From positions 26,958 to 90,957 of the forward strand of contig JAHITY010000062.1 of assembly GCA_018817165.1 (NCBI GenBank): a DNA stretch of 64,000 bases. The letters run 5' to 3'. This document shows positions 9,705 to 52,161 of the stretch, in pieces. The notes under the pieces were generated by a model. That model saw nothing but the letters and a program-made list of their open reading frames with translations. It did no database searches and was not told the DNA's origin. Origin of the DNA: Candidatus Omnitrophota bacterium (lineage in GTDB: Bacteria; Omnitrophota; Gorgyraeia; B26-G9). A program made the translations under genes and the position numbers. Each line of letters opens with the position of its first letter. The first letter of the stretch is position 1.

Positions 9705-9711
9705 TCTAACC

Positions 9712-10570: not shown

Positions 10571-10589
10571 TTAGTGCGATAAAATCTAA

Positions 10590-10631: not shown

Positions 10632-10730
10632 TCAGGTTATTGTTGAGATTGAAAAGAATATTTGTTATAATAAAAAAAAGTTATAATGTTTGTCTCTAAT
10701 TAATTTGGTTAATTAGTTGAAAGGCTTGCG

Positions 10731-11279
10731 ATGAATTCAATAAAATCATTATTACTATTAAAATCGTTTAAGAATAAAATTAATCGATTTATCAAATCAG
10801 TAAATCTGAACAATAATAAATTAGGGTATAGTTTGGTGGAAATAATGATTGTTATCGCGATTATTGCTTTATTAGCCGCGGTTTCCATTCCTAATATGTT
10901 AAGAACTAAACTTAATGCCAATGAACAGGCGGCCCAAACCACTTTAAAAGAAATTTCTAAAGCATGTGAAAGTTATCGAATTACTCAGTCAGTAACTACT
11001 TATCCCGCGGTTATTGCTGACTTGACTGAGGCCGATGATCCATATATTTCCGCTTTGGTTTTTGATTTAAATGGGCATCGAGGCTATTTGTTTACTTTTA
11101 CTGCCGGACCAACTGCAGCATTCGAAGGGGTTATTCAGACATTTGATTGCGGCGCAAGGCCGGTTTCTGCTAATGTTACGGGAAACCGCTGGTTTGTAAT
11201 TGATGAAACCGGAGTATTAAGAGAAGATCTTGATGCTGATGGTATTGCTGATGCCTCAGATACGGCAATTCAGGATTAG
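10731..11279 (+). CDS. Type IV pilin paralog 2 with unusually long (about 32 aa) leader
   Basis: ...NNNKLG|YSLVEIMIVIAIIALLAAVSIPNML; two Cys in the C-terminal half; AAAGG RBS before the ATG at 10731. Confidence 0.75.
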   Translation: MNSIKSLLLLKSFKNKINRFIKSVNLNNNKLGYSLVEIMIVIAIIALLAAVSIPNMLRTKLNANEQAAQTTLKEISKACESYRITQSVTTYPAVIADLTEADDPYISALVFDLNGHRGYLFTFTAGPTAAFEGVIQTFDCGARPVSANVTGNRWFVIDETGVLREDLDADGIADASDTAIQD

Positions 11280-11327
11280 TTATGATGAATTGAAATAAAT
11301 TGTAAATTTGCAAAAGAAAGCATTTTT

Positions 11328-11804
11328 ATGCAATTGAAAATAAAACATGGATTTACATTGGTTGAAATATTAATCGTTGTCGCCATAATTGCCATGCTTG
11401 CAGCTTTGGCAATTCCTAATCTTATATACGCGCGTTTAAATTCAAATGAAGCCAATGCTCAAGGCACGTTAAAAGTTATTGGCAGTGCCTGTGAGAGTTT
11501 TCGGGTTGTTCAGGCAATTCCTCAATTTCCGGTTGATTTAGCGGCAGTAACTGATGCGACTCCGCCTTATTTAGCCGCGATTATTGATACCGCGACAACC
11601 GGGTCGCCGAAAAACGGTTATAATTATACGTATACGAGAATTGGTTTTCAGCAGTTTGTTTGCTGTGCAACACCAGAAACTTATCAGGTTACGGGAATCA
11701 GGACTTTTGCTTTAAACGAGAGCGGTGTGATCAGAGCGATTGACAATACTGCTGCGGTGGTAAATACGGAAGCTGCATATGATTTGATGACTCCGACCAA
11801 TTAA
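11328..11804 (+). CDS. Type IVa pilin paralog 3
   Basis: MQLKIKHG|FTLVEILIVVAIIAMLAALAIPNL; Cys pair present (SACESFR...FVCCATPE). Confidence 0.85.
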   Translation: MQLKIKHGFTLVEILIVVAIIAMLAALAIPNLIYARLNSNEANAQGTLKVIGSACESFRVVQAIPQFPVDLAAVTDATPPYLAAIIDTATTGSPKNGYNYTYTRIGFQQFVCCATPETYQVTGIRTFALNESGVIRAIDNTAAVVNTEAAYDLMTPTN

Positions 11805-12144
11805 ATATTTTTATGAAATGATTATTTTACGTAAGTCATTTGAAGTAATGATTTTCATTGACAAAAATAAAAAAAAATGCTAAATTAAAATAGTAATAAA
11901 TAGAGGAAGAATTTTTACTAAAAAATGGAGTTTGAGAAATGACAGGGAAATGTCTTTCTAGAAAAAGAAGTATACCCTCTAATTCTATGTATGACTGCAA
12001 TTATTTTTTCCCCTCATATTTTTTAAAACTCATATCTCTTGTGTATAATAAAGCATACAGCTTTTCGATTAAGCCTGAAAATGATTCAAATCTTATTATT
12101 TGTGGGAATTGTCGAACCAGTTTAAAAAAAAGGTTTAGGTATTA

Positions 12145-13416
12145 ATGGACAAAGTGATAACTTTATTGCCATTTATCAGCATTTTATTTTTAATTGTTTT
12201 TTGGGTTTTTAGTCCGAATATGGGGGCGGCTCTATTAACAATTACTATTCCTTTTGTTATTTTTGCCGTTTATTCTAATTTAAAAAGAAAAGAATTACTC
12301 TCGGAATTAAGGGATACTGTTAAATCTTTTCAAGCGGAAAAAGAAGAAATTATAAAAGAAATTCAGAAAAAAGAAAAAAAACAAAGAGCGCAAAATGAAG
12401 AATTAAGACAGTTTGGAAAAAGTCTTTCCACGGCAATTAATAAAGATCAGCTTTTGCGTTTAATTGTAAAAAATTTCAGCAAGGTTACTGAATCTAAAGA
12501 AGGCGAAAGCCAATGTTTTCTTTTAAGCCGGCAGCAAGGGACAGATGAGTTTATTTACGAAGCCGGACATAATTTTGACAGCAATACCTTGAAATCAATG
12601 AGGTTTAGTGAGAATGATGAAATTATTCAGGCAGTAGTAAAAAGCAAAAAAATCAATACTTTTATTAGTGATATATTTGGCGGAGATTCAAATATTAGAT
12701 ATTTTCTTAAAGAGGAACGGACAACTTATTTATCGCAATTAGGATCACTGGCGCTTATCCCTTTAATAATGGAAGAGGAAGTGTGGGGAATTATTGTAAT
12801 TTTTTGCCGAGAAGGGGCTGCGGCTAATATAAAAAATGATGAAGCTTTTTTTCGGCTTTTGGTCGCGCAGGCTTCAATTGCTTTAGGTAGCGCGATTCAT
12901 CGCGGTCTTGCTTCGATCGATAAACTAACTCAGTTGTATAATCGTACTTTTTTGCAAAAACGAATGAATGAAGAAGTCGAATTTTGTAATCGGCAGCTTC
13001 TGCCTTTAAGTTTGTTGATGCTGGATATTGATCATTTTAAATTAATTAATGATACTTATGGGCATCAAGAAGGCGATATGGTGCTTAAAAAAATAGCGCA
13101 GATTATCAGTAAAAGTGTGAGATTAACTGATATTTGCGCGCGTTATGGCGGAGAAGAATTTGTTATTGTTTTACCGGGAATTGAGGAAATCGCGAACGAT
13201 AAATTTTCTATAGCTGAAAAATTAAGGCAGGCTGTTGAAAGTTCTGATTTTGTTGTGCTGGGTGATAAGCATATAAAAGTTACTATTAGTATTGGGGTTA
13301 CTGTAGGCAGATATCCTGAGGATAAAGACTTAGGGATGGACGCGTTTATCCAAAAAGCGGATCTATTGCTCTATAAAGCAAAAGAAGCTGGTAGAAATAG
13401 GGTGTGTTATAGTTAA
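12145..13416 (+). CDS. Membrane-anchored GAF-GGDEF diguanylate cyclase
   Basis: Two N-terminal TM helices, a coiled-coil, a GAF-like middle domain, and a C-terminal GGDEF domain with an intact active site RYGGEEFVIVLPG. A sigma70-like promoter TTGACA-17-TAAATT sits at about 11868-11896. Confidence 0.85.
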   Translation: MDKVITLLPFISILFLIVFWVFSPNMGAALLTITIPFVIFAVYSNLKRKELLSELRDTVKSFQAEKEEIIKEIQKKEKKQRAQNEELRQFGKSLSTAINKDQLLRLIVKNFSKVTESKEGESQCFLLSRQQGTDEFIYEAGHNFDSNTLKSMRFSENDEIIQAVVKSKKINTFISDIFGGDSNIRYFLKEERTTYLSQLGSLALIPLIMEEEVWGIIVIFCREGAAANIKNDEAFFRLLVAQASIALGSAIHRGLASIDKLTQLYNRTFLQKRMNEEVEFCNRQLLPLSLLMLDIDHFKLINDTYGHQEGDMVLKKIAQIISKSVRLTDICARYGGEEFVIVLPGIEEIANDKFSIAEKLRQAVESSDFVVLGDKHIKVTISIGVTVGRYPEDKDLGMDAFIQKADLLLYKAKEAGRNRVCYS

Positions 13417-13452
13417 GATGCTAAAAACCTTTTTGTTTAAAATGGGAGAGTA

Positions 13453-15123
13453 ATGTTTCAAAAAAACAATGATTCTATAGGACTGGAAATAGGTGACGGT
13501 TTAGTTAAGGCAATGCATATGCGTTGTTCGGCTAAAGAAAACAGGTTGCTGGGATACGAGATTGTACCAGTGAATTTTCGCGAAGGTCGCCAAGGAATTG
13601 TCAATGCAATGAATGAGGTATTGACGCGTCTTGCCCTTAATAAGAAAAAGCATAAAGTTAATATCTCTGTTTCTGGCGAATCAGTTATGGTTCGAGATAT
13701 CCATTGGCCGCAAATGGCTGATGAGGAGATCCGTAAGGCATTGAAATTTGAAGTGGAACGACAGGTCCATTATAAAACTGATGAAATTGTATTTGATTAT
13801 TATTCTGTTTTGGATAAAACGATTGCTGAAACAAAAACAAGAGTTATTCTGGTTGCTGCTAAAAAAGATCTTATTGAAAATTATGTTAGCCTGATTGATT
13901 CGACGGGTTTTCTGCCGGGTTTTATTGAAGTAGACACCTTTAGTCTGCTGAATTGTTTTTATGTTAATGGGCCAAAACTGGCTGCTGAAAAAACAATAGC
14001 GATTATTAATATAGGCATGGAAGTTACTAATATTGATATAATTCGAGGGAGAATTGTCGGTTTAACAAAAGATGCTTTTGTTGCCTGGAGCAATTTGATT
14101 GATGCTTTGCCGGAAGATGTTGAATTAGACTTTTCGGATGTGACTTCGCTTAAAGGCGTGATGGGTACTGATGATATTTATGAATTGAGTCTGTTTATCA
14201 TGAACGCGCTTTCAAATCAGATAAGGCGTACGATTGAATTTTATGAAAGTCAGGGACGGGATACGGTAGAGGAAATATACTTAAGCGGCAAAGTGGCAAT
14301 GTATAAGAATCTGGATAAGTATCTGCAGAATATTCTGGGATTACAGGTTACTATTTGGGATCCGCTGGCTAATGTGCAATATGACCCCAAATTGTTCGCG
14401 GACAAGAAAATAAAGGAACAGGCTTTAATGCTGGCAGTTTGTACTGGGCTTGCCTGCTTTAGATCTTTTAATATAAATTTGGCTAGCAATAAAAAAGAAG
14501 TTAAAAAAAGCAAGCTGATGAAGTTTGTTAATCAAAATAAGATATTGTTTTATCTGGTATCAATTGCAATTATTTGTTTGATCGGGGTTTGGGTCATTTT
14601 GAGTAGTCAGCTTAAAATTAAAGAAGTTAATAAACAAAAATTGCTTGATCAAAATCAAAAATTGGAAGGGATTTTGCAGGACATTGAAAATTTAAAACAG
14701 GCTAGGTTTACTTTGCAGCAGCATATGCAGATAGCTAAGGCTTTACTTTCCCGAAGAATAATCTGGGGTAAAAAATTTCATCAAATAAGTACTAGTTTAC
14801 CGGAAGAAATGTGGCTGACGGATTTATATCTCAAAGACGCGTCAGTATCTCCAGCTAAGAGTCAATTTGAAGTAATAACTGATATTGGTGGGGCTGATTC
14901 TTTTAGGCCAAAGGATACTGTCCAGATCTTAATCATCAAAGGAACGGCATTTTCCAAAGCAAGTGATAATATGCTTAAAATAATAAATGATTTTATTAAT
15001 GCTTTAAAGTATAACCAGGAATTTGCTAAAGATTTTTCAACAATAGAATTAAAGCGCTCCCAACGTGTTGATATCGGTGATAGAGCGATTATGAAATTTA
15101 GTATGGAGTGTGTTTTAAAATAA
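13453..15123 (+). CDS. pilMN: Fused PilM-PilN (actin-like ATPase domain, then a TM helix, then a PilN-like periplasmic coiled-coil domain)
   Basis: Residues 1 to about 345 are PilM-like. Then comes FNINLASN (resembling the PilN INLLP motif) and a TM helix ILFYLVSIAIICLIGVWVILSS, followed by a coiled-coil and a C-terminal domain. 556 aa in total. Confidence 0.75.
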   Translation: MFQKNNDSIGLEIGDGLVKAMHMRCSAKENRLLGYEIVPVNFREGRQGIVNAMNEVLTRLALNKKKHKVNISVSGESVMVRDIHWPQMADEEIRKALKFEVERQVHYKTDEIVFDYYSVLDKTIAETKTRVILVAAKKDLIENYVSLIDSTGFLPGFIEVDTFSLLNCFYVNGPKLAAEKTIAIINIGMEVTNIDIIRGRIVGLTKDAFVAWSNLIDALPEDVELDFSDVTSLKGVMGTDDIYELSLFIMNALSNQIRRTIEFYESQGRDTVEEIYLSGKVAMYKNLDKYLQNILGLQVTIWDPLANVQYDPKLFADKKIKEQALMLAVCTGLACFRSFNINLASNKKEVKKSKLMKFVNQNKILFYLVSIAIICLIGVWVILSSQLKIKEVNKQKLLDQNQKLEGILQDIENLKQARFTLQQHMQIAKALLSRRIIWGKKFHQISTSLPEEMWLTDLYLKDASVSPAKSQFEVITDIGGADSFRPKDTVQILIIKGTAFSKASDNMLKIINDFINALKYNQEFAKDFSTIELKRSQRVDIGDRAIMKFSMECVLK

Positions 15124-15132
15124 GGGAAAATA

Positions 15133-15726
15133 ATGAAAAAAGAACTTTCTAAAAAAGATCAGACATTAATCGCGGGAATTATTGGAATTTTTATTCTAGT
15201 GGTTCTGTCTTTTGTGACCGTATTCCAGCCTTTAATTACAAAAATTTTAAATTATAATAAACAGGAAAAGACAATGAGTGAACAGTTGGCTAAAGTTGAA
15301 AGCATGTCAGCTGATAAAGAAAAACTATCAAGGGAATTAGAAATTATTACTAAGAAAATAGATTATTATGAAAAAAAATTACCGCAACAGACTGATATCC
15401 CGGAAATACTCGCGGAATTGATTAAAATAGGCGAAAAAAGCAATGTTACATTTATTATGATTGAGCCGCAGAACACAAAGCAGATAGCTGTGGGAGATTC
15501 TCAGAATAAAACATATTTAGAAATCCCCATAGAAATTAAGCTCAAGGCAGGGTATCATCAGTTCGCGGCTTTTGTTAATGGTGTGGAAAATTTTCAAAGA
15601 TTCATGAAAGTGGATAATATAAAGATTACTTCTAAAGATGACAGCGCTGAGAAATTACATGAGGCGAGTTTAACGGTTAGCGCATTTGCTATAGAAAGAA
15701 AAAATACTGATGAAAAAACAAATTAA
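15133..15726 (+). CDS. pilO: PilO-like inner-membrane pilus alignment protein
   Basis: N-terminal TM, coiled-coil and a small periplasmic domain; position between pilMN and pilP. Confidence 0.6.
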   Translation: MKKELSKKDQTLIAGIIGIFILVVLSFVTVFQPLITKILNYNKQEKTMSEQLAKVESMSADKEKLSRELEIITKKIDYYEKKLPQQTDIPEILAELIKIGEKSNVTFIMIEPQNTKQIAVGDSQNKTYLEIPIEIKLKAGYHQFAAFVNGVENFQRFMKVDNIKITSKDDSAEKLHEASLTVSAFAIERKNTDEKTN

Positions 15727-16150
15727 ATCGAAAGTAATTTTATTAGTGATATTAATAATCATTATTAATTCAATGGCTTTAGGGCTTAATGCATTGTTAA
15801 CTGATGCTTTTGCGCAACAACCTATAGTAAGTGATGAATCAACGGAGGTATTTGTTTATACTCGGAATGAAAGACCTGATCCGTTTGTTAGTTTAATAAA
15901 TAAAAGCGGAGATTTTAAAGATAATGTTCCCAGCGCAAGAGAAGAAATGATGGATTTAGTTCAACTGATTAAAGTTGATGGAATCCTTTGGGATTCTCAA
16001 ATGCCCTTGGTAATGATCAATAAAGAAATTCATAAAATCGGTGATATAGTCAATAGGCTGACTGTTAAAGAAATTACTGCTGAATCAGTTACTTTTGCGT
16101 ATTCAGATTTAACGTATACAATTACTATTATAGAAAAGAAATATTTTTGA
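15710..16150 (+). CDS. pilP: PilP-like protein
   Basis: Signal-anchor N-terminus plus a small beta domain; overlaps pilO and the pilQ start (ATGA); position in the operon. Confidence 0.5.
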   Translation: MKKQIKSKVILLVILIIIINSMALGLNALLTDAFAQQPIVSDESTEVFVYTRNERPDPFVSLINKSGDFKDNVPSAREEMMDLVQLIKVDGILWDSQMPLVMINKEIHKIGDIVNRLTVKEITAESVTFAYSDLTYTITIIEKKYF

Positions 16151-17880
16151 ATATCAAGGAGGAGTTAATGGACGTTAAAAATTTAATCTCAAGGAAGAGA
16201 ATTACACTGTGTTTGTTTTTATTGAGCATGATCTGCTGTTTTTCTTTAAACTCAGAGCTGAAATTCGCGTATGCTCAGCAGAGCGTTGAAAATCAATCAG
16301 ATTTTTCAGAACAGCTGAAAAATAATGATACTAGTGAGGATAAATTAATTTCGATTACTCTTAAGGAAACGGATATTAGAGAAGTGCTTAATATCCTGGC
16401 ATTTAAGGGGGGAGTCAATATCGTTGCGGGTGATGATGTTGTGGCGAAAATATCTGTTCAGCTTAAAGATGTTCCTTGGGAGCAGGCGCTGGATGTTATT
16501 TTGAAGACTTATAATTTCACTTATAAGCGCGATGGAAGCCTGATTCGGGTCATGAGCCTGGCTCGCGCATTGGAAGAAGAAGGTAAGACACCGCTTAAAA
16601 CTAAAATATTAGCGCTTAATTTTGCTGATGTTGTAGAATTGAAAGAGTCATTGAACAAAATGTTGAGTAAAAGAGGCACAATGGAGGTTGATAAACGCAC
16701 TAATTCTTTGATTATTACCGATATCCCGGAAATGGTAGATGCAATTGAGGAATCAGCAACTAGGCTGGATACTCTGACGCCACAGGTATTGATTGAAGCG
16801 ATGATGGTTGATATTAAAATAACTGACAAAAATCAATGGGGAACATTATTGAATGTATTAGATTTAAAAAATAGTCCGAATGGTTTAGACTCAGTATTGT
16901 CTGACGGCTCAGGCACTGGTCTTTTAAACTTTGGCACAATAACAGATAATTTTGATTTAACTGGGGCAATCGTGTCCCTGGTTTCACAAGGTATGGCTTC
17001 AATCCTGGCTAATCCAAAGGTGCTTACTTTAGATAATCAAAAGGCAATGATAGAAATAATCACGGAAATTCCTTATCAAGAGTCTGTTGATTCCGGTGGA
17101 GCAATTACTACTACGATTAAGTTTAAAGATGCGGGAATTAAATTGTCAGTAACTCCGCATATTACCAGTGGCAGATTTATTTCGATGAATGTTATGCCTG
17201 AACAAAGTTTTCAGTCTGGTTTTGCTGAAAACACAACGCAGCCGATTATTGATAAACGCTCGGCAGAAACAAATCTTCTGGTTAAAGATGGCCAGACAAT
17301 TGTGATTGGCGGTTTAAGACAAACTACTGATAACATCGATCAAGGAAAAATTCCTTTTTTTGGGGATATACCCTTTTTCGGATTGTTTTTTAGAAGCAAA
17401 TTAAGAACAAAAGTGGAGACAGAATTGGTTATTTTTGTTACTCCGCATATTGTGGAAACAGCGCTTTTAAGTGATCGAGAAATAGAATTGTTTGAAAAAC
17501 TAGATAATACCGCTAGGTTATGTTTTGACGAACGGTCTGAAATGGAAAAATTCAAAGCTTTTATGAATATTAAAAAAGATGTAAATAAAGCTGAAAAAAT
17601 TGCTGAGCATGAAAGTAAACGCTTACGCTTAGAACAAGAAGTAAAATCAGATCCCTTGATTGAGGCCAATTATCAATCAACAGCTTCGGAACCACTAAAA
17701 ACGCAATTACGCCAGAGGCGTAAGCAAATTATCGAAAAAGATGCGCCGGCACCGGTTCAAGAGGTTCCGGTAGTTTTTGAGCAGGATTTTTCATCCGAGG
17801 TTTATCAACAAAACAAAGCTTTAGAACTGGAAGCTGATCAATTTCGCAAATCAATGGATTTGCTGAAAAGTGAACATTAA
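16147..17880 (+). CDS. pilQ: Type IV pilus secretin PilQ
   Basis: Signal peptide, N0/N1-like domains, and the secretin C-domain signature IPFFGDIPFFGLFFRS...ELVIFVTPHIV; 577 aa. Confidence 0.9.
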   Translation: MNIKEELMDVKNLISRKRITLCLFLLSMICCFSLNSELKFAYAQQSVENQSDFSEQLKNNDTSEDKLISITLKETDIREVLNILAFKGGVNIVAGDDVVAKISVQLKDVPWEQALDVILKTYNFTYKRDGSLIRVMSLARALEEEGKTPLKTKILALNFADVVELKESLNKMLSKRGTMEVDKRTNSLIITDIPEMVDAIEESATRLDTLTPQVLIEAMMVDIKITDKNQWGTLLNVLDLKNSPNGLDSVLSDGSGTGLLNFGTITDNFDLTGAIVSLVSQGMASILANPKVLTLDNQKAMIEIITEIPYQESVDSGGAITTTIKFKDAGIKLSVTPHITSGRFISMNVMPEQSFQSGFAENTTQPIIDKRSAETNLLVKDGQTIVIGGLRQTTDNIDQGKIPFFGDIPFFGLFFRSKLRTKVETELVIFVTPHIVETALLSDREIELFEKLDNTARLCFDERSEMEKFKAFMNIKKDVNKAEKIAEHESKRLRLEQEVKSDPLIEANYQSTASEPLKTQLRQRRKQIIEKDAPAPVQEVPVVFEQDFSSEVYQQNKALELEADQFRKSMDLLKSEH

Positions 17881-41432: not shown

Positions 41433-42185
41433 ATGTCAGGACATTCAAAGTGGGCAAGTATAAAACATAAAAAAGCCGCGACTGATCAGAAAAGAGGTAA
41501 AGCGTTTACTAAGCTGATCAAAGAGATAACTGTAGGCGCGCGCGAAGGCGGCGGTGATCCGGACGCGAATCCACGTTTACGTTTGGCAATTCAAAAAGCT
41601 AAAGACGCGAACATGCCAAAGGACAATATCTCTAATGCGATTAAAAAAGGAACTGGTGAGTTGCCGGGGGTTGTTTATGAATCAATTTTGTATGAGGGGT
41701 ATGGTCCGGCTGGAGTAGCAATATTAGTTGATGTTTTAACTGATAATAAAAACCGCGCGGCAGCGGAAATTCGCAGCATTTTTACCAAGAGAAACGGTAA
41801 TATGGCTGGAGCGGGATCAGTTGCGTGGCAGTTTAAGCAAAAAGGAATAATTATTGTTGATAAAGATAAAAGTGATGAAGATAAATTAATGAATATTATC
41901 CTGGAAAACGGCGCTGATGATATGGTGGTAGAAGATACTTGCTTTGAGATCAGCGTGCAGTTAAAGGATTTTGAAACTGTGAAAAAAGCAATTGAAGACA
42001 ATGGAATCGCCATGACTCAAGCGGAGATAACCATGGTCCCGGATACAACTGTAAAGATAAATGAAAAAGCGGTGGCTCAGCAAGTCGTAAATTTAGTCAG
42101 TTTTCTGGAAGATTATGATGATGTTCAGAATGTTTATTCCAATTTTGATATTCCAGATGATATCCTAAATGAAATAGTAACTTAA
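41433..42185 (+). CDS. yebC: YebC/PmpR family DNA-binding regulator
   Basis: MSGHSKWASIKHKKAATDQKRGKAFTKL N-terminus is diagnostic. Confidence 0.9.
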   Translation: MSGHSKWASIKHKKAATDQKRGKAFTKLIKEITVGAREGGGDPDANPRLRLAIQKAKDANMPKDNISNAIKKGTGELPGVVYESILYEGYGPAGVAILVDVLTDNKNRAAAEIRSIFTKRNGNMAGAGSVAWQFKQKGIIIVDKDKSDEDKLMNIILENGADDMVVEDTCFEISVQLKDFETVKKAIEDNGIAMTQAEITMVPDTTVKINEKAVAQQVVNLVSFLEDYDDVQNVYSNFDIPDDILNEIVT

Positions 42186-42193
42186 GGATATCT

Positions 42194-42706
42194 ATGCGTG
42201 TTTTAGGTGTTGATCCTGGTTTGCGGTGTGTGGGATACGGAATTGTGGAAAGTAATAATACCGGATACTTTCCGAGTCAAGGGAGAAATAAAAATCTTAA
42301 ACTAATTGAAGCTGGGATTATCAGAACAACCGCGAAACAAGAGTTGCCTGTAAGACTTAAAAAAATATATGCTGGTTTATTAGAGGTGGTTGAAACTTAT
42401 CATCCTCAGGTTTTAGCTTTAGAGGAATTATTCTCTCATTATAAAAATCCTAAAACAGCAATAATGATGGCTCATGCCCGGGGAGTTATTTGTCTGATTG
42501 CTGCTCAGCAGAACATCCAGGTATTTGGCTATGCGCCAAAGAAAATTAAAAAAGCAATCACCGGTGCTGGTGCCGCGCAAAAAGCACAAGTCCAAAAAGT
42601 AATAAAAGAAATTCTCGGATTAAAAACAGTGCCTGAGCCGAATGACGTGGCTGATGCTTTGGCAATTGCCCTAACCCATATTAACATAAGTAGCAGGCAA
42701 ATATGA
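42194..42706 (+). CDS. ruvC: Holliday junction resolvase RuvC
   Basis: MRVLGVDPGLRCVGYGIVE with catalytic acidic residues; 170 aa. Confidence 0.9.
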   Translation: MRVLGVDPGLRCVGYGIVESNNTGYFPSQGRNKNLKLIEAGIIRTTAKQELPVRLKKIYAGLLEVVETYHPQVLALEELFSHYKNPKTAIMMAHARGVICLIAAQQNIQVFGYAPKKIKKAITGAGAAQKAQVQKVIKEILGLKTVPEPNDVADALAIALTHINISSRQI

Positions 42707-43323
42707 TTTGTAGAATAGCCGGTAAAATAGTGCAGCGTAAAGAAAGCTCTTTGATTATAAATGTCCAGGGCCTGGGATATGAAGTGTTTATTCCCAAAGG
42801 CGTGTTTATGTCTTTGCCATTGCAAAATGCAGAGTGTGAGTTGTTTACATTCCATTATTTGCAGACAGATCCCAGTAAAAGTTTTCCGATATTAATTGGG
42901 TTTGTAAATGAAATTGAAAAAGAATTCTTTGAAAAGTTTATCACGGTTTCGGGAATTGGTCCGAAAGCAGCAGTGCGCTGCTTGAGTGAACCGATAGCGC
43001 ATATTGCCCGGGCAATTGATGCGGGGGATGTGCTTTTTTTAAAATCATTGCCGGGAATCGGTACGCAAAGAGCTAGGGAAATAGTCGCTAAACTGCAGGG
43101 GAAGGTGGGAAAATTCAGTCTTATTCAGGTCTCGGGACAAGCTCAAATTGTGCCTGAGATTAAAACGGATCTTGAACAGGAAGCATTGACTGTCCTCTTA
43201 CAGCTACAGTATAAAAAACCAGAAGCAGAGCTTATGGTTAAAAAAGCAATGCAAAGGAATAATAATATTACTAATTCGGAAGAGCTATTAAATGAAGTCT
43301 ATAGACAAAAATCTAAACAATAA
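42703..43323 (+). CDS. ruvA: Holliday junction branch-migration protein RuvA
   Basis: Domain I OB fold and HhH motifs (GIGPKAA, LPGIGTQRA); overlaps ruvC by 4 nt. Confidence 0.85.
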   Translation: MICRIAGKIVQRKESSLIINVQGLGYEVFIPKGVFMSLPLQNAECELFTFHYLQTDPSKSFPILIGFVNEIEKEFFEKFITVSGIGPKAAVRCLSEPIAHIARAIDAGDVLFLKSLPGIGTQRAREIVAKLQGKVGKFSLIQVSGQAQIVPEIKTDLEQEALTVLLQLQYKKPEAELMVKKAMQRNNNITNSEELLNEVYRQKSKQ

Positions 43324-44371
43324 TAATGATTCAAAAATACTCAGGGAGCCTGTGCTGATTCAGCAGGAAACCGAAGAAGATCTTGTCCTGAATTTATCTT
43401 TACGGCCGATCAAATTTGCCGATTTTATTGGTCAGGATAAATTAAAAGAAAATCTGCTGATTGGGATTGAAGCCGCAAAAGCCAGACAAGAACCTTTGGA
43501 GCATCTTATCTGTGCTGGCCCTCCTGGTCTGGGAAAAACAACTTTGGCGCATATTGTGGCTCATGAAATGGGTACAAAAATTACCACAACATCTGGTCCA
43601 GCAATTGAGCGGGCTGGGGATTTGATCGGTATTCTGACTAATCTTGAACAGGGCGATATTTTATTTATTGATGAGATCCATCGCTTGTCTAAAGTTGTTG
43701 AAGAATTTCTTTATCCGGCAATGGAAGATTATAAAATTGATTTTATAATTGATAAAGGTCCATATGCTAAGACGATTCAATTTAATTTAAAACCATTTAC
43801 TTTAATTGGCGCGACCACTCGATCCGGTTTATTAACTGCTGCTTTACGCAGCCGTTTCGGGATGAATTATCATCTTGATTTTTATCCTTGGGAAGAACTG
43901 GTTAATATTGTTATAAAATCCGCGGAAAAGCTTAGTTTGCCGATTGATCAAGAAAGCGCGATTTTAATTGCCAAACGTTCTCGGGGCACTCCCCGGGTGG
44001 CTAATCGGCTTTTACGCCGCGTGCGGGATTATTGTCAGGTAAAAGCGCAAGGTAAGCTTACTCCTGAACTGACTGATGCAGCGCTTAATCTTCAGGGGAT
44101 TGATAATTTGGGGCTTGATGATATTGACCGGAGAGTTTTAAGCGTGATTATTGATACTTATGATGGCGGGCCAGTGGGAATTGAATCTTTGGCTGCTACT
44201 TTAAATGAAGAAAATGATACAATTGTTGATGTAGTTGAACCTTATTTATTAAAAATGGGTTTGCTTAAACGCTCGCCAAGAGGCAGGCAGGCAACGCAAT
44301 TGGCTTATCAGCATTTAAGCCGTAATCGGGTAAAGGATGAGCAAAAGGATATAATCAGCGATGAAGTCTAA
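43292..44371 (+). CDS. ruvB: Holliday junction ATP-dependent DNA helicase RuvB
   Basis: AAA+ motifs GPPGLGKTTLA, DEIHRL and the winged-helix C-terminus. Confidence 0.95.
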   Translation: MKSIDKNLNNNNDSKILREPVLIQQETEEDLVLNLSLRPIKFADFIGQDKLKENLLIGIEAAKARQEPLEHLICAGPPGLGKTTLAHIVAHEMGTKITTTSGPAIERAGDLIGILTNLEQGDILFIDEIHRLSKVVEEFLYPAMEDYKIDFIIDKGPYAKTIQFNLKPFTLIGATTRSGLLTAALRSRFGMNYHLDFYPWEELVNIVIKSAEKLSLPIDQESAILIAKRSRGTPRVANRLLRRVRDYCQVKAQGKLTPELTDAALNLQGIDNLGLDDIDRRVLSVIIDTYDGGPVGIESLAATLNEENDTIVDVVEPYLLKMGLLKRSPRGRQATQLAYQHLSRNRVKDEQKDIISDEV

Positions 44372-44927
44372 AACTATCTTACTGCATGTCTGTTGCGCTC
44401 CCTGTATGATCGTTCCTTTAGAACGCTTGAGAAAACAGAGTTTTCAAGTCAATGGGTTTTTTTATAATCCGAACATTGAGCCAAAAGAAGAACTAGAAAA
44501 ACGTAAAACAAATGTATTGGCTTATTCCAAGCGTAATGATTGCGCCATGTTTTTTGATCAAAACGAAAATAGTGAACAGTTTTTTGCTGCTTTTGCCGGA
44601 AAATTAGAAGGTCCTGAGCGTTGTCATACCTGTTGGTATTTTAGGCTTAAAAAAACTGCGGAACACGCTAAAAAAAATAATGCTGATTATTTTACTACAA
44701 CTTTATTGGTAAGTCCTTATCAGGATGGGGAGAAAATCCGGGAGATCGGAGAAAAAGCAGCCGCGGAAACAGGAGTTATGTTTCATTATGAAAATTTTAG
44801 CACTGGATATCAGCAAGCAGTACAGATTTCCCGCTTGGAAAATATGTATCGTCAAAAGTACTGCGGCTGCAAACTAAGTTTAGCGCAAAGACAGGCTGCT
44901 AAAAAAACAAGAATAAAGCCTAGCTAA
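44361..44927 (+). CDS. queH: Epoxyqueuosine reductase QueH (DUF208)
   Basis: LLHVCCAPC...CHTCW...YCGC cysteine pattern and overall collinearity with the QueH family; 188 aa. Confidence 0.8.
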   Translation: MKSKTILLHVCCAPCMIVPLERLRKQSFQVNGFFYNPNIEPKEELEKRKTNVLAYSKRNDCAMFFDQNENSEQFFAAFAGKLEGPERCHTCWYFRLKKTAEHAKKNNADYFTTTLLVSPYQDGEKIREIGEKAAAETGVMFHYENFSTGYQQAVQISRLENMYRQKYCGCKLSLAQRQAAKKTRIKPS

Positions 44928-45967
44928 TGCAGATAAATGAATTTGACTATCATCTTCCGACAAAGCTTATTGCCCAGTATCCCGCCGAGCAGCGTGATCA
45001 ATCCCGACTTTTAATTGTGAATCGCAAAACTAATAAAATCACTCACAGTATGTTTAAAGATATTAGCAATATGTTTGAGCCGGGTGATGCTTTGGTTTTA
45101 AATGATACTAAAGTAAAGCCAGTGCGATTGATTGGAAAAATTCAGGAAAAAGAAATTGATATTCTCCTGGTTGAACGCCTAGAAAAAAATAAGTACTTGG
45201 TTTTTGCTAAACCCGGAAAAAAATTAAAAGATAAAATAAACATCAGCTTTGCTGATGGGCAATATACAGCGATTGTCGAGGATATAGAGCCAGCTAGAGA
45301 AAAAGGGATGAAGTGTATTAAGTTTCAGCTAGAGTTTGATATTGAAGCTGTTTTAGAAGAATTTGGAATGATGCCTTTGCCTCCATATATTAAACGCTGT
45401 GTAATGAATGCGGATAGTGCGAGATATCAAACTGTATATGCGAAAAATTCCGGAGCAATCGCTTCGCCAACTGCTGGGCTGCATTTCACTCAGGGAATAT
45501 TAGACCAGCTGCATAAGAAAAAGATAAATACAATCTATGTTACTTTGCATGTGGGACTGGGAACTTTTTTACCAGTTAAAGTGGATGATATTGAACAGCA
45601 TCAGATGCACAAAGAAGCTTATGACTTGACAAATTCAGCGGCGCAGGAAATTGAGGCGGTTAAAAAAGCAAAACATCGGATTTGCGCTGTGGGCACAACC
45701 GCCTGCCGCGTTTTGGAAAGCTGTGCTAATATTGATAATGGCTTTTCTATTGCCGCGGCAAAAGGCTCAACAGAAATTTTTATTTATCCGCCGTATAAGT
45801 TTAAAGCCGTTGATATGCTATTAACTAATTTTCATTTACCAAAAACAACTTTGCTGATGCTGATCAGTGCTTTTGCCGGTAAAGATCTGATCATGGAAGC
45901 CTATCGGCAGGCAGTAGAGCAGGAATATCGGTTTTTTAGCTATGGCGATGCCATGTTGATTATTTAG
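44927..45967 (+). CDS. queA: S-adenosylmethionine:tRNA ribosyltransferase-isomerase QueA
   Basis: FDYHLP..LIAQYP...R..SRLL N-terminus and the GTTxxR region; start overlaps the queH stop (TAATG). Confidence 0.9.
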   Translation: MQINEFDYHLPTKLIAQYPAEQRDQSRLLIVNRKTNKITHSMFKDISNMFEPGDALVLNDTKVKPVRLIGKIQEKEIDILLVERLEKNKYLVFAKPGKKLKDKINISFADGQYTAIVEDIEPAREKGMKCIKFQLEFDIEAVLEEFGMMPLPPYIKRCVMNADSARYQTVYAKNSGAIASPTAGLHFTQGILDQLHKKKINTIYVTLHVGLGTFLPVKVDDIEQHQMHKEAYDLTNSAAQEIEAVKKAKHRICAVGTTACRVLESCANIDNGFSIAAAKGSTEIFIYPPYKFKAVDMLLTNFHLPKTTLLMLISAFAGKDLIMEAYRQAVEQEYRFFSYGDAMLII

Positions 45968-46107
45968 CGTATAGCGATTAGCGGATAGCGGTTAGGAGAA
46001 ATAGAAGACATCAAACCGAGGGATGAGGGACGATCGCTACGCTAGGAAGATGGACGATAAAGCAGAAAAAGACATTAGGTCTCATGGGGCCCTACGTCAT
46101 CAGGTTA

Positions 46108-47449
<1,342 letters not shown>

Positions 47450-47469
47450 TAATTCATTCAATAAGAACA

Positions 47470-47498
47470 TTGACAATCTTTAATAAATCTTGTAAAAT
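47470..47498 (+). promoter_or_regulatory. Near-consensus sigma70 promoter (TTGACA-17-TAAAAT) for the H-NOX gene
   Basis: Exact -35 hexamer and 17-nt spacer; AAGGAGG RBS 7 nt before the GTG start. Confidence 0.5.
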
Positions 47499-47552
47499 TA
47501 AAAAAGGGAATAAAACTTAATAACAGTAACATGCAAATCAAGGAGGAAAATT

Positions 47553-48074
47553 GTGAAGGGAGTAATTCCAAAATGTTTAGGAGAATTAGTTGTAAGTAAA
47601 TTTGGTAAAGACAGATGGAAAAAAATTTTATCAGAATCCGGGCTTAGTGAGAATACTCTGTTTATGGCTGTACAGGATATTGATGATGGGGCTGTAATAA
47701 AAGTTATTGAAAATACATGCAAAATATTAAATATTACTTTAATTCAGGCCGCTGATGCTTTTGGTGAATATTGGGTCTGTGAATTCGCGCCTAAACTTTA
47801 TTCAGGGTATTATAAAAATAAAACAACTACAAAAGATTTTCTTGCAGCTATGGATGAAGTGCATCAAAAAACAACGATAAACATTCCCGGGGCTCATCCT
47901 CCGCGCTTTGAGTATGAATGGACATCTGAGGATACACTCATAATGCATTATAAATCATCAAGAGGTTTAATTGATTTCTTGGTGGGTTTAGTTAAGGGGG
48001 TTGTTAAATATTTTAAAGAAAATCATAAAGTGACAAAATTAAGCGATACTAAAGTGCAGATTGTGTTTAAATAA
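47553..48074 (+). CDS. hnoX: Stand-alone H-NOX (haem nitric oxide/oxygen-binding) domain protein
   Basis: MKGVI N-terminus, candidate proximal His about 104 (DEVHQ), Pro-rich IPGAHPPRF, and the Y-x-S-x-R haem-propionate motif (HYKSSRG). Collinear along its 173-aa length with the Thermoanaerobacter H-NOX sequence as recalled from memory. Confidence 0.8.
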   Translation: MKGVIPKCLGELVVSKFGKDRWKKILSESGLSENTLFMAVQDIDDGAVIKVIENTCKILNITLIQAADAFGEYWVCEFAPKLYSGYYKNKTTTKDFLAAMDEVHQKTTINIPGAHPPRFEYEWTSEDTLIMHYKSSRGLIDFLVGLVKGVVKYFKENHKVTKLSDTKVQIVFK

Positions 48075-48127
48075 GCAATGTGTTAAATAAATATTTGTAG
48101 ATTTAGTTGTGCGGTAAAATAATAAAT

Positions 48128-48176
48128 AGGGGAAGTTTTTAAGTTATCTTAACTTAAGACTTCTCCTGTTTTTTTT
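48128..48176 (+). terminator. Intrinsic terminator after hnoX
   Basis: Long hairpin GGGGAAGTTTTTAAGTT...AACTTAAGACTTCTCC followed by a T9 run. Confidence 0.7.
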
Positions 48177-48516
48177 TAAAATATATTATTTGTTCGGTTG
48201 CGTATATAAGGGGGCATCAAATAATTATTTCTTAAAAAAATCAAAAATGAATAATTAAATCACGCATTTTAATAATATTTTAGCTCGTCTTTTTTGTAGA
48301 TTGCTTAATTATTAGTTTGAAAAATCCTGATTTAAAACCGCTAATTTGTTAAGGATCCTAAATTATTAAACTTAAAAATTTAAAATATTTATTGTTTTAT
48401 CGTATCTTGTTTGAATCCAATTAGTTGTGAGTGTGGGTATATTTGCAATATAGTTTTATTTGTGGTAGACTTTACAGTTCATATATATTGTCTAAAACTA
48501 TTGGGAAAACTAAGTA

Positions 48517-51500
48517 ATGAAATTTTTTAATAAAAAATCAATTCAATTAAAAATTATTGCTTTGCTATTATTAAATAGCTTTTCTGGAATTAATAGCAGC
48601 AATGCTTTTGACTTTAAAATAGAGCATAATTCTCAGCAACATTGTCTTGCTCCTGTGCTCCAGCTTGACAACTCAATCTTTTCTAAGCTTCTTATTGATT
48701 ATAATCGTGAAGTATTAAGTATCCTGCATACCATGAAGTATGCGCCTCAGCTTGCCCTAGGTAATGACCGGGTGATCGGGGCTGCCATACAAAAAAATTC
48801 AAACCAAGAAGATCCCGAATACTGGCTGATGCTTTCTCATCGCGGTTCTCCCATGGCTGCGGATATTAATTTTCTCCCAGACAATCTTGAGCAAAAAGGT
48901 AATGGTCTAGGCGTATTTAATCCTGATCAAGATGATTATGTTTATGAGCTTGTCGAATTTTTTGATAATAATCAATCGGATATTAATTCAATTATTAATC
49001 CCAAACGCATGTTGGTAACCGGGCGTTCTTTGCGGGTATTGGGAATGGGTTTTTATCAGCCTTTGCCGATTTCAGTAACAAAGATATACAAATTTAGAAA
49101 AGTAGCCGCGCAAATTCCTAGTCAAGATAAAGCTGATTATAATGTATTGTTAAAATACTCATTATTAAATTATAAACGGTTTGCTCCCCAATACCGGATG
49201 GAGAACAGTTTTATCGCTAGAGAAATAATTAAAGCACTTAATGCCGGCAGTGTTGAATTTACGGGATTATTTTACGCTTTATCTGAAATGATTGATGACG
49301 ATCAGAAAATTGACTTTAGTGAATTAAGCCGCATATTTAGTGATATTATTTTTTATGGTGATCAGCAGTTAAAAGATAATGCCCAAAAAATTTTGATTGA
49401 TATTGCGATTGCTGGGCAAATCAAAGAAATTTCAGTCCATGGTTTAGCCAAAGCTTCAATTGTTGGCGCGCGTTCTAGTGAAAACGCGATTAAGCTCTTA
49501 CGCAGTTCGACTGTGGGTGAAATAGTGCTTACTTCTCCGGAAAGTTTATGGAGTACTGGAACAGGAGGAATGGCTTTGTATGTTTCTGATCTGGCCAAAG
49601 AACTCGCGGCCTTGGGAATCCCGGTCACTGTTATTGTCCCATTGTTTAATGAACCTATTCGAAAAAAAGAGATTTTTCAATCATATAATTTGCATGATAC
49701 AGGCCGAGGGATAAATTTAAACTTCGGTAGGGCGGGGGATGAAACCGCGCATGCAAAAATTTACGAAGCTAATCAGGAGGGGGTAAGAATATTATATTTG
49801 GAGAATGATAAGTATTTTAATCTGCTAAAAGGTTCTGATGGCGGAGATAATGCTTACAATGGATCAGTTAGTTTTCGCTTGCGGTTTGCCCGGATGCTTT
49901 CCTTAGGAACTTTGTTGGCAATCCGGGAAATGAATATTCATCCTCGAATTATTCAGACCAATGATTGGACAACTGCTTACTTAAAAGCTTATTTAGAAGG
50001 CAGAGAGCGGATTGATCCAAGTCTTGAAGGCTTACGCTTTGATCCTCATTTGCAGTCAACAAAAGTTTTAAGCATATTGCATAATTCACATGCTTATTAT
50101 CAAGGGAATATGTGGGTTCCTGATTTAGCGCAGAGAGATAAGCACATTTGGGATGATCTGGGATTTAATCCGGAAAAAGACACGGATATTCTTGTTTTGG
50201 GCCATGATCATACCCAGCATGATCATAATCCTGTTTTAAGAGCCAGAGCGTGGCTGGATATTAATCCGACTTATACTGCGGTCAGAACAGGAGATAATAT
50301 TATAGATGTAAGTGAAGGTCATCGAGATCGAAGTATTAATCCTGTTTATGCTCCGGAATTCGGATATCTTGATGGCGTTTTGGGCTGGAAAGCGAGTATT
50401 GGCGATTTTTATGGCCAGGCTAATGGTTTTGGCTTAGCGCAAAGGCAGCGCGATTTTTTAAGTAAAATGCTGATTGCTAATAAAGAATCCAAAGTATCAA
50501 TTAAAGACATGGCTGTTAATATTAGCAAAAAGAATTCCCAGAGTAAAATTGAAGAGGGGTATATTAATTGGCTGTCAAATCCTGAATCAATGTTGAGAGG
50601 TTTTTATGGCATTAGCTCAGACCAGGAAAAATCATGGCTGAATAAGTTGTGCAATGATTTAAAACCGCAAGACAAATCAATGGCTGAATTTAAGTTGGAG
50701 ATGCGCAAGCTTTTAGAAGCAGAATTGCTGCAAAAAACCACAAAGCTACTGCGTTCAAATATCTATATTGCTTTAGAAGATAAAAATTATTTTAAACATG
50801 ACTTGGAATATAGAAAAATGCTTCAGGATTTTCTTGATAAACCAGAACAGTCGATCAAGAGTTTTTTTGATATAGGCCATGAATCAGAGCGGAGGAGATT
50901 GGCAAATTTTCATTTTGAGTTTATCAAACCTTTACAAAAATCAATATTGCAGAATATTTTTGGCATAGAAAAAGATGAACAAAAATTTACTTATTCCATG
51001 CTTCACCGTGTTGGAGAACAAAAAGGGCATCAATTATTAACTGCAGAAATCTGGAATAGCCATAATCCCGGATCGCTTAAGGCTATAAAGGGAACAATTT
51101 TCTATGATAAGATTGAGAGTCATGATTATGAAATAGGCTTAAGTCTGGAAGATCAAAATAAATTATCTGATTTTGCCAATAAACATAATTTGATTAATTT
51201 GCGGGCCATGGAAGTGGCAATGATTTTAAATCATGATGTGCAATTTGTTATAGTTGGCTCAGCTGATGGTGATTTAGATAAAGCCTTTCAGGAAACATAT
51301 AAAATATTTAAACATACAAAACAATTTGCTTATTTGCCGGAATTTATCTCCATTAACAGTGCTTTGTATGATTTGATTTATTCAGGCTCAGATCGTTTTG
51401 GCATGCCTTCTTGGTATGAACCAGGCGGATTATCTAATCAAGAAGCGGCAGGATATGGTACCCCGCGGCATCTTACTCGGAGAGACGGATTACTTGACGG

Positions 51501-52161
51501 AGAAATAAAAGTTGAGGGTTTAAGAGAAAGTTTTGAGGAATTTAATCCTGTTGCTTGGCTTGTGTCCTTGCAGGAGCATAGTAAGTTTTTTAAAGAAAAT
51601 AAATCCGAGGAAAGAGAACTGCGTTATCAGGCGATAACTCAGGATAATCGCTGGCTGAACCGGGCGAGAAATTATGTTGAGCTTTACCGCAAACTTGCCG
51701 GCGCGGAAAGAATCCCGGAATTAAAATCCTTGGTAATGACTGCGGCAATTCATCAGGCGGCGATTCGCGCAGATAATGATCCGGCTGATGAAATTATGCG
51801 CAATGGATATACTGCTGAAGAAACAGTAGATAATCTGATTAATGTTGTTAAATCTTCATCAAATAATGTTTTGGTTTCGGCATTAATTGAAAAATATATC
51901 CCTTATTTAGCTAAAATTTTAGAAATCAGACAAACTTTAATTAATCGCATAGATGTGATTGTTGAAGAGTGTAGAATTAATGGTGATAGTGGAATTTTAT
52001 GCCAAAGATTTGAAATGCTTAGAGATAATATTATTCAATTAAATAAAATAACAGCTAAGGAAATTATGCCATACGCGAATGTGGATTTAGCTACTTTAAA
52101 ATTAAAGCAAAAAGAATATATCCTCAGTTTAAAATTTAGCTTTGTTGATCAGGCGATTTAG
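48517..52161 (+). CDS. Very large glycogen/starch-synthase-like (GT5) glycosyltransferase with N- and C-terminal extensions and internal insertions
   Basis: GT5 N-half motifs STGTGGMALYVSDLAKELAALGIPVTVIVP and IIQTNDWTTAYL (cf. KTGGLADV / HxHDWxTAL). GT5 C-half FVIVGSADGDL...IYSGSDRFGMPSWYEPGGLSNQEAAGYGTPRHLTRRDGLLD. 1214 aa, versus about 480 for GlgA. Confidence 0.6.
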   Translation: MKFFNKKSIQLKIIALLLLNSFSGINSSNAFDFKIEHNSQQHCLAPVLQLDNSIFSKLLIDYNREVLSILHTMKYAPQLALGNDRVIGAAIQKNSNQEDPEYWLMLSHRGSPMAADINFLPDNLEQKGNGLGVFNPDQDDYVYELVEFFDNNQSDINSIINPKRMLVTGRSLRVLGMGFYQPLPISVTKIYKFRKVAAQIPSQDKADYNVLLKYSLLNYKRFAPQYRMENSFIAREIIKALNAGSVEFTGLFYALSEMIDDDQKIDFSELSRIFSDIIFYGDQQLKDNAQKILIDIAIAGQIKEISVHGLAKASIVGARSSENAIKLLRSSTVGEIVLTSPESLWSTGTGGMALYVSDLAKELAALGIPVTVIVPLFNEPIRKKEIFQSYNLHDTGRGINLNFGRAGDETAHAKIYEANQEGVRILYLENDKYFNLLKGSDGGDNAYNGSVSFRLRFARMLSLGTLLAIREMNIHPRIIQTNDWTTAYLKAYLEGRERIDPSLEGLRFDPHLQSTKVLSILHNSHAYYQGNMWVPDLAQRDKHIWDDLGFNPEKDTDILVLGHDHTQHDHNPVLRARAWLDINPTYTAVRTGDNIIDVSEGHRDRSINPVYAPEFGYLDGVLGWKASIGDFYGQANGFGLAQRQRDFLSKMLIANKESKVSIKDMAVNISKKNSQSKIEEGYINWLSNPESMLRGFYGISSDQEKSWLNKLCNDLKPQDKSMAEFKLEMRKLLEAELLQKTTKLLRSNIYIALEDKNYFKHDLEYRKMLQDFLDKPEQSIKSFFDIGHESERRRLANFHFEFIKPLQKSILQNIFGIEKDEQKFTYSMLHRVGEQKGHQLLTAEIWNSHNPGSLKAIKGTIFYDKIESHDYEIGLSLEDQNKLSDFANKHNLINLRAMEVAMILNHDVQFVIVGSADGDLDKAFQETYKIFKHTKQFAYLPEFISINSALYDLIYSGSDRFGMPSWYEPGGLSNQEAAGYGTPRHLTRRDGLLDGEIKVEGLRESFEEFNPVAWLVSLQEHSKFFKENKSEERELRYQAITQDNRWLNRARNYVELYRKLAGAERIPELKSLVMTAAIHQAAIRADNDPADEIMRNGYTAEETVDNLINVVKSSSNNVLVSALIEKYIPYLAKILEIRQTLINRIDVIVEECRINGDSGILCQRFEMLRDNIIQLNKITAKEIMPYANVDLATLKLKQKEYILSLKFSFVDQAI

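Follow-up and report, generated by a model that had tools for sequence, protein, structure and literature searches.

Bacterial H-NOX haem proteins have been described in two main arrangements. In one, the H-NOX is a stand-alone protein that, by direct binding, regulates a kinase or a cyclic di-GMP (c-di-GMP) enzyme encoded by another gene, and the characterised stand-alone hnoX gene usually adjoins the gene of such a kinase or enzyme; in the published division, the H-NOX of obligate anaerobes is fused to a methyl-accepting chemotaxis protein (MCP) and carries a distal tyrosine, and pockets without this tyrosine exclude O2 and bind nitric oxide (NO) (PMC8738867, a review of H-NOX biochemistry). 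The present analysis concerns an hnoX gene in a stretch of 64,000 nucleotides, here called the window, from Candidatus Omnitrophota bacterium (assembly GCA_018817165.1, contig JAHITY010000062.1, positions 26,958 to 90,957 of the forward strand). It is a real and constrained gene that encodes a full-length H-NOX, a new member of a known family, and it shares with its whole clade a departure from both textbook arrangements. The product is very likely a functional orphan haem protein with a pocket that, judged from its residues, would exclude O2; on the evidence assembled below it is probably a haem sensor of NO or carbon monoxide (CO) and works in trans, through a partner whose gene lies in another part of the genome and whose likeliest identity is an MCP.

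The closest solved relative is Alr2278 of Nostoc sp. PCC 7120 (PDB 2O09 and others; 26% identity, TM-score 0.87–0.89), likewise a stand-alone protein of about 180 residues with a proximal histidine, a YxSxR motif, Trp74 and an apolar pocket without tyrosine; it differs in having Met at position 142, which is Phe in the window protein, and Ala and Ser in place of Cys8 and Cys56. The H-NOX of Caldanaerobacter subterraneus (Tt H-NOX; PDB 1U4H/1U55) has the same fold (TM-score 0.82–0.86, 29% identity), equivalents of His102, Pro115 and Tyr131-Ser133-Arg135, an anaerobic host, and a link to MCPs that is also seen among the relatives of the window protein. Tt H-NOX, however, is fused to its MCP and holds O2 through hydrogen bonds from Trp9, Asn74 and Tyr140, whereas the window protein is a separate polypeptide with Leu, Trp and Phe at these positions, and the rule for obligate anaerobes given above (PMC8738867) does not describe its clade. 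The HnoX–HnoK and H-NOX–diguanylate cyclase/phosphodiesterase systems of Shewanella, Vibrio and Legionella, in which a stand-alone H-NOX of the NO type regulates a separate enzyme by direct binding (PMC8738867), provide the model adopted here, although identity to these proteins is 16–19% in structural alignment and their partner genes are adjacent, unlike in the window. With CooA and RcoM, haem proteins encoded together with carbon monoxide dehydrogenase (CODH) that respond to CO (PMC9670170), the analogy is functional only: many relatives of the window protein hold the same genomic position beside CODH, but the window hnoX does not, and CooA and RcoM have unrelated folds (CRP-family; PAS-LytTR), six-coordinate haem and a DNA-binding domain, which H-NOX lacks.

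The window protein and its distal pocket

The only domain that Pfam recognises in the 173-residue product is HNOB (PF07700), matched with E 1.4e-41 and 142.6 bits (cut-off 25.5) from residue 2 to residue 161, that is, end to end over profile positions 1–162 of 163; the first-pass annotation, made from the letters alone, had placed the protein in this family and proposed the same search as a check, which it passes. By sequence, the nearest solved relatives are Nostoc Alr2278 (1.8e-18), Tt H-NOX (6e-13) and the beta1 subunit of soluble guanylate cyclase (1e-10). An AlphaFold2 model built from 30 clade sequences (pLDDT 93.3, pTM 0.87) has the H-NOX fold, with an N-terminal helical and a C-terminal alpha/beta subdomain, and the top 47 Foldseek matches in the PDB are all H-NOX proteins or the haem-domain subunit beta1 of guanylate cyclase (TM-score 0.73–0.89; 0.82–0.89 for the Tt and Nostoc structures). 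An identical sequence is deposited at NCBI as MBU1043852.1, ‘heme NO-binding domain-containing protein’, from a metagenome-assembled genome (MAG) of Candidatus Omnitrophota, so that the gene is real and had already been annotated automatically. Two other Omnitrophota species have the same tgt–hnoX order, with H-NOX proteins 88% (locus L008) and 70% (locus L009) identical to that of the window, and dN/dS against each of them is 0.24, a sign of purifying selection.

The residues around the haem were read from an alignment of Nostoc and clade members with a Tt H-NOX sequence confirmed to be identical to PDB 1U4H. Tt His102, the proximal haem ligand, corresponds to His104 of the window protein (Nostoc His105), Tt Pro115 to Pro117 (in the pair Pro116-Pro117), and the haem-propionate motif Tyr131-Ser133-Arg135 to Tyr133-Ser135-Arg137 (Y133-K-S135-S-R137). 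In the distal pocket, Trp9 of Tt H-NOX is Leu9 in the window protein, Asn74 is Trp74, as in Nostoc, and Tyr140 is Phe142, while Phe78 is retained as Phe78 and Leu144 as Leu146. The Leu and Phe at the positions of Trp9 and Tyr140 had first been read from a rough alignment, and the exact Tt sequence yields the same residues. The hinge glycines Gly71 and Gly145 are retained as well. The predicted pocket is wholly apolar (Ile5, Leu9, Trp74, Val75, Phe78, Phe142 and Leu146), with no tyrosine to donate a hydrogen bond. Across 248 relatives the haem-binding residues are essentially invariant: position 104 is His in 246, Pro117 and YxSxR do not vary within the clade, and position 142 is F, L, I or V, never Tyr. 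With Leu9, Trp74 and Phe142, and with no MCP fusion, the window protein falls outside the O2-binding, Tt-type subclass. Apolar H-NOX pockets also bind CO. The proposal of an NO-selective sensor, made in the first-pass annotation, is therefore upheld only in part: the pocket is not of the O2-binding tyrosine type, but NO is one reading among others of an apolar pocket, and the neighbours of related genes, with Ni-CODH the commonest and no NO-metabolism genes in the families listed, make CO a serious alternative.

Relatives of hnoX and their gene neighbours

More than 500 database proteins match the window protein at E ≤1e-5; the best 120 are almost all 172–175 residues long and 53–63% identical, and a search of 1.84 billion representatives gave 1399 clusters at E ≤1e-3, the close ones being nearly all stand-alone proteins of about 173 residues. 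In GTDB species genomes, members of this clade are found in over 15 bacterial phyla, among them Omnitrophota, Nitrospirota, Cloacimonadota, Spirochaetota, Bacillota and Thermodesulfobacteriota, the last with cable bacteria (Electrothrix), and also in archaea, namely many independent Methanoperedenaceae (L012, L020, L026, L028–L030, L034, L039, L049, L053 and L068), Methanophagales (L060), Promethearchaeota (L064) and Altiarchaeales (L074). The archaeal proteins are 47–60% identical to bacterial ones, and some of their genes lie inside che operons or adjoin cooS. Identity of H-NOX across the domains of life (50–60%) exceeds that of the RuvA, RuvC or QueH of the window to their counterparts in a Nitrospirota genome (33–42%), a sign that the protein is strongly constrained and has spread horizontally. 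In the H-NOX tree, a ‘Flavobacteriales’ contig (L032) falls close beside Methanoperedens L034, suggesting a binning error in the ‘Flavobacteriales’ MAG. In the paper library searched, no article links H-NOX with Omnitrophota, with Methanoperedens or with cable bacteria, and the members of the clade appear to be unstudied.

To describe the genomic setting of the clade, open reading frames were called in 81 non-redundant loci, and the neighbours were clustered and annotated by Pfam and iterative profile searches; a partner was counted if it lay within three genes of hnoX, and the categories overlap, seven loci having two types. CooS was found in 16 loci, an MCP, CheB or CheR in 13, a histidine kinase in 8, a sigma54 activator in 5 and a REC-GGDEF protein, encoded directly downstream of hnoX, in 2. 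None of histidine kinase, GGDEF, MCP/Che, sigma54 or CODH genes stood near hnoX in 43 of the 81 loci, some of which are on short contigs. The orphan state, which the first-pass annotation had singled out as unusual for a bacterial hnoX, is thus the commonest state in the clade and not an anomaly. Individual archaeal loci show a CheB–HNOX–CheA order (Methanophagales, L060) or an HTH-V4R regulator upstream of hnoX (Methanoperedenaceae, L028), and genes resembling those of haem synthesis (sirohaem synthase-like) adjoin hnoX in two loci.

The association with CODH is the most frequent and gives the strongest signal. Within 10 kb on either side of hnoX, 16 cooS genes were found, none of them more than three genes away from it and 10 of them its immediate neighbours (P ~9e-7 against uniform position). 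Their products are true Ni-CODHs, that of L004 matching CODH-II at 3e-263; the possibility that these Prismane-family neighbours were hybrid-cluster proteins, with a link to NO, was rejected, all of them being of CODH type, including the divergent one of L059 (not Hcp). The linked genes come from at least six lineages (Nitrospirota, Methanoperedenaceae among the archaea, Omnitrophota, Deltaproteobacteria, Peptococcia and Bacteroidetes MAGs), their products are diverse (28–77% identical to the L004 CooS), and gene orders vary, often with CooF and an FAD/NAD oxidoreductase (FNOR) alongside. A recurrent hnoX–cooS–cooF–FNOR module can be recognised in L004 (8001–12478), L006 (8001–12314), L087, L015, L019, L022, L012, L026, L038 and others, and in two Nitrospirota loci this block is kept in differing upstream contexts. 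L038 (6487–10516), from another member of the Omnitrophota, has the order CooF, CooS, a protein joining REC to a class III adenylate/guanylate cyclase, and HNOX; with its parts split between genes, this arrangement recalls soluble guanylate cyclase. In the H-NOX tree, the CODH-linked members are dispersed and do not form the subclade of the window protein, and the window copy itself is not within three genes of a cooS. The neighbour families listed, the top 25 for each side, include none of NO metabolism. In the paper library searched, no description of an hnoX–cooS association was found, and H-NOX is not mentioned in a paper on CO in Methanoperedens or in its supplements (PMC13079737).

A link to chemoreceptors is seen closer to the window gene. 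In the sister lineage, also of Omnitrophota, that is nearest to the trio formed by the window protein and its two Omnitrophota relatives (P0004, 63% identical), hnoX is followed after 9 nt, in three assemblies, by the gene of a 549-residue HAMP-MCP, and in more distant relatives (P0162, P0174 and P0267; 34–42% identity) the H-NOX is fused to MCPsignal domains, an arrangement that is rare. Among database homologues of the P0004-linked MCP, identity falls from 89% to at most 47%. An attempt to find the missing partner of the window protein by way of this sister-lineage MCP returned no close orthologue and was abandoned, the best distant homologue coming from another sample and being paired with a hemerythrin gene. 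That homologue (L091, 832–2884; 41% identical) has a gene for a 141-residue stand-alone hemerythrin 1 nt upstream, which suggests an MCP subfamily with interchangeable small gas-binding inputs.

The hnoX transcription unit and its surroundings

The positions of the features of the window are given in Table 1. The stretch that the first-pass annotation singled out (47470–48176) is the transcription unit of hnoX. The promoter and terminator that this annotation assigned to the gene are both found, and each is kept or replaced by an equivalent in L008 and L009. Promoter matches of at least 11/12 number 9 in the window against 1.03 expected, a count reached in 0 of 100 shuffles; most are intergenic and on the coding strand, so that the organism appears to use promoters of the sigma70 type. 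In L008 and L009, within intergenic sequence that has otherwise diverged, the −35 element is unchanged and a −10-like hexamer persists; the ribosome-binding site (RBS) reads AAGGAGG or AAAGGAGG, and the start codon is ATG at the same position. The terminator hairpin has a dG of −23.5 kcal/mol and a z of −5.74, with 0 of 200 shuffles equally stable; L008 has a homologous hairpin with both arms changed, and L009 a different GC-rich hairpin and T5 directly 3' of the stop codon. hnoX ends a transcription unit and, to judge from the putative promoter, very probably starts its own; the tgt–hnoX gap has no terminator, and read-through from tgt into hnoX is possible. The Rfam scan found no RNA element near hnoX, its sole match being a riboswitch 45 kb away, and no anomaly of composition that would be a sign of recent transfer was seen at hnoX, besides AT-rich intergenic DNA.

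Table 1. Features of the window, with positions counted from its first nucleotide.
Feature	Position	Strand	Details
Type IV pilus cluster	67-17880		
Promoter-like sequence before riboswitch	2313-2341		sigma70-type, 11/12 match
c-di-GMP-I riboswitch	2386-2549	+	Rfam RF01051, 37.7 bits (gathering score 35)
Pilin gene	2636-3106		
PilS-like kinase gene	7064-8350		pilus cluster
PilR-like sigma54 regulator gene	8352-9704		pilus cluster
GAF-GGDEF protein gene	12145-13416		pilus cluster
yebC-ruvCAB-queH-queA-tgt, then hnoX	41433-48074		
Putative sigma70-type promoter of hnoX	47470-47498	+	-35 TTGACA 47470-47475, 17-nt spacer, -10 TAAAAT 47493-47498; 11/12 match
Ribosome-binding site	47540-47546	+	AAGGAGG, 6 nt 5' of the GTG start
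hnoX coding sequence	47553-48074	+	GTG start; 173 codons, 173 aa
Codon of Cys8	47574-47576	+	
Codon of Leu9	47577-47579	+	
Codon of Cys56	47718-47720	+	
Codon of Trp74	47772-47774	+	
Codon of His104	47862-47864	+	predicted proximal haem ligand
Codons of Tyr133-x-Ser135-x-Arg137	47949-47963	+	
Codon of Phe142	47976-47978	+	position of Tt Tyr140
Intrinsic terminator of hnoX (by folding)	48129-48166	+	hairpin GGGGAAG...CTTCTCC, 38 nt; T-tract 48169-48177
Glyco_transf_5 protein gene, 3' of hnoX	48517-52161	+	1214 aa, signal-peptide-like N-terminus

The neighbours of hnoX are, as the first-pass annotation had them, tgt (PF01702, 4.4e-158) and the gene of a giant Glyco_transf_5 protein. No partner is fused or adjacent, which also agrees with that annotation. 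The sole signalling genes in the window are those of the PilS-like, PilR-like and GAF-GGDEF proteins, at least 34 kb from hnoX, and the operons of the HnoX–HnoK and H-NOX–HaCE kind have no counterpart here, the nearest histidine kinase or GGDEF gene lying at that distance; no MCP or further signalling gene is present in the window, and tblastn detected no cooS, cooF or FNOR in it, or remnants of them. Nor is there an MCP, che or CODH gene in the approximately 10 kb beyond each end, where a PAS kinase, a REC protein and pilus ATPases are encoded upstream and surface proteins downstream.

Several features of the wider window are recorded here in their own right. The 1214-residue protein has its starch/glycogen-synthase catalytic domain at residues 336–603 within long unannotated regions, which is unusual for Glyco_transf_5. 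Besides the genes in Table 1, the window holds housekeeping genes and genes of large surface proteins. Of 53 open reading frames of at least 120 codons, 51 are on the plus strand and the other 2 overlap plus-strand frames, an extreme strand bias over 64 kb, and the GC skew, sampled over 43–54 kb, is positive in nearly all segments. The riboswitch lies between pilC and the pilin gene. Together with the GAF-GGDEF gene in the cluster and the MshEN-domain PilB ATPases encoded just upstream of the window (L093), it suggests several levels of c-di-GMP control over the type IV pilus system. A yebC–ruvC–ruvA–ruvB–queH block precedes hnoX both in the window, where queA and tgt are inserted, and in Nitrospirota L004 (3891–8522). 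An interpretation of this shared order as orthology followed by loss of cooS was rejected, because L004 is from Nitrospirota, as its RuvB shows (96% identity to that of Nitrospirota), and the likeness across phyla may be coincidental. Other relatives adjoin folE, folK, dapB or MTHFR genes; such neighbours, like the yebC–ruvCAB–queH block, may be coincidental or may point to a weak connection with GTP, pterin or C1 metabolism.

Ligand, partner and significance

In the reading considered probable here, the window protein would be a cytoplasmic stand-alone H-NOX in which His104 ligates a single haem b and Tyr133, Ser135 and Arg137 secure its propionates. The ferrous haem, in an apolar pocket without a donor tyrosine, would exclude O2 and bind NO and/or CO; ligand binding would shift the N-terminal helical subdomain about the Gly71 and Gly145 hinges, as in characterised H-NOX proteins, and this shift would change the binding to, and the regulation of, a separate signalling protein. 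hnoX would be transcribed from its own strong promoter to its own terminator, downstream of ruvCAB–queH–queA–tgt, and the partner would be encoded elsewhere in the genome, the likeliest candidate being a HAMP-containing methyl-accepting chemoreceptor of a Che-type pathway. The analysis establishes the family, the haem-binding residues, the apolar pocket, the transcription signals, purifying selection and the lack of a partner within 34 kb; haem loading, the identity of the ligand, signalling in trans and the class of the partner are what we infer. The MCP, taken by itself, is a tentative choice, guessed from the HAMP-MCP of the nearest lineage that has a neighbour and from the rare MCP fusions among relatives. 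Several points weigh against this account: database searches yield no close orthologue of the sister-lineage MCP; the partners of relatives are so varied (CODH, hybrid histidine kinase, sigma54 regulators, REC-cyclase, GGDEF and HTH-V4R) that extrapolation from neighbours is weak; MCP and che genes were not found in the approximately 84 kb of this genome examined; expression appears high, to judge from the near-consensus promoter and RBS, and this is untypical of a low-copy sensor; and both haem binding and ligand specificity are predictions from residues.

That the clade evolved with Ni-CODH operons, and that the window copy is a CO sensor or CO-handling protein serving a CODH or CO pathway encoded elsewhere, is possible though unlikely. 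It would account for CooS being the commonest and so tightly clustered neighbour, for the recurrence of true Ni-CODHs over diverse lineages and gene orders, for the hnoX–cooS–cooF–FNOR block kept in Nitrospirota loci of different upstream context, and for the absence of NO-metabolism families from the neighbour families listed. On the side of the literature, very few dedicated CO sensors have been identified, with CooA and RcoM named (PMC9670170), Methanoperedens oxidises CO with several CooS, the word ‘regulator’ being absent from the main text of that report (PMC13079737), and ‘H-NOX’ and ‘CODH’ were found together, in the paper library searched, only in an unrelated review. Yet no cooS, cooF or FNOR lies in the window or its 10-kb flanks, the CODH-linked members are scattered over the tree, the signal is NO or O2 in the H-NOX proteins that have been characterised, and a stand-alone H-NOX beside cooS has no obvious output domain. 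A fuller version, in which the cross-domain clade of anaerobes has CO as its ligand and works with cooS–cooF–FNOR, while the window copy has become uncoupled from CODH and reports CO to a chemotaxis-type receptor or other partner, seems a little less likely still. As for the PilS kinase or GGDEF enzyme, which the first-pass annotation put forward as partner, we consider it improbable that the protein feeds into the c-di-GMP network of the pilus cluster through the GAF-GGDEF cyclase or the PilS-like kinase. The usual output of the characterised H-NOX pathways is c-di-GMP control (PMC8738867), the cluster looks c-di-GMP-regulated in the ways described above, and two relatives have the REC-GGDEF gene directly downstream of hnoX; but the candidate genes are 34–40 kb away, PilS and PilR form a self-contained pair, a common window of 64 kb is no evidence of linkage, and in no relative does a GAF-GGDEF protein or a six-transmembrane PilS-type kinase adjoin hnoX, the nearest lineage with a partner having the HAMP-MCP instead.

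Two further proposals dispense with a signalling partner or with haem as the sensing group. A role as an abundant haem protein, serving as a buffer or scavenger of NO or CO or as a haem carrier, e.g. to shield metalloenzymes, would fit the near-consensus promoter and strong RBS, the roughly half of clade loci that have no signalling neighbour, the CODH loci in which hnoX is co-oriented with enzyme genes with no regulator nearby, and the sirohaem synthase-like neighbours; it is nevertheless quite improbable, since conservation of the hinge glycines and of the entire surface is very strong (50–63% identity across domains), which fits a protein–protein interface better, MCP fusions and che-operon members occur in the wider group, and no H-NOX is known as a scavenger. 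Least likely of all, and very doubtful, would be a haem-independent thiol or redox sensor working through Cys8 and Cys56, which are specific to the clade, much as the H-NOX of Vibrio cholerae, with its Cys/Zn redox switch, can signal oxidation through cysteines (PMC7108781). Among clade members at ≥55% identity, Cys8 is kept in 118 of 120 and Cys56 in all 120, and packing, a gas tunnel or thiol chemistry are candidate roles for these near-invariant residues. In more distant H-NOX relatives, however, both become Ala or Ser, as expected of small buried packing residues, and all haem-binding residues are invariant. The only cysteines of the window protein are Cys8, Cys56 and Cys76, with none after residue 76, so that the zinc site of Vibrio and Shewanella H-NOX, formed in the C-terminal subdomain by three cysteines (Cys149/174/182; PMC7108781), is absent.

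As a single orphan gene, the window hnoX is an ordinary family member of modest interest; the clade and its link to CODH hold more. This clade stands outside the division between facultative aerobes, with an NO sensor beside a kinase or diguanylate cyclase, and obligate anaerobes, with an MCP-fused O2 sensor bearing a distal tyrosine, and it amounts to a subfamily of hundreds of stand-alone H-NOX proteins of near-equal length, predicted to exclude O2, in strict anaerobes, cable bacteria and methane-oxidising archaea. The adjacency to CODH offers a concrete and cheap hypothesis on the regulation of CO oxidation in anaerobes, including Methanoperedens, for which few sensors are known. If that hypothesis were true, these proteins would join CooA and RcoM as a third kind of haem-based CO sensor, and H-NOX signalling would extend to archaea such as Methanoperedens.

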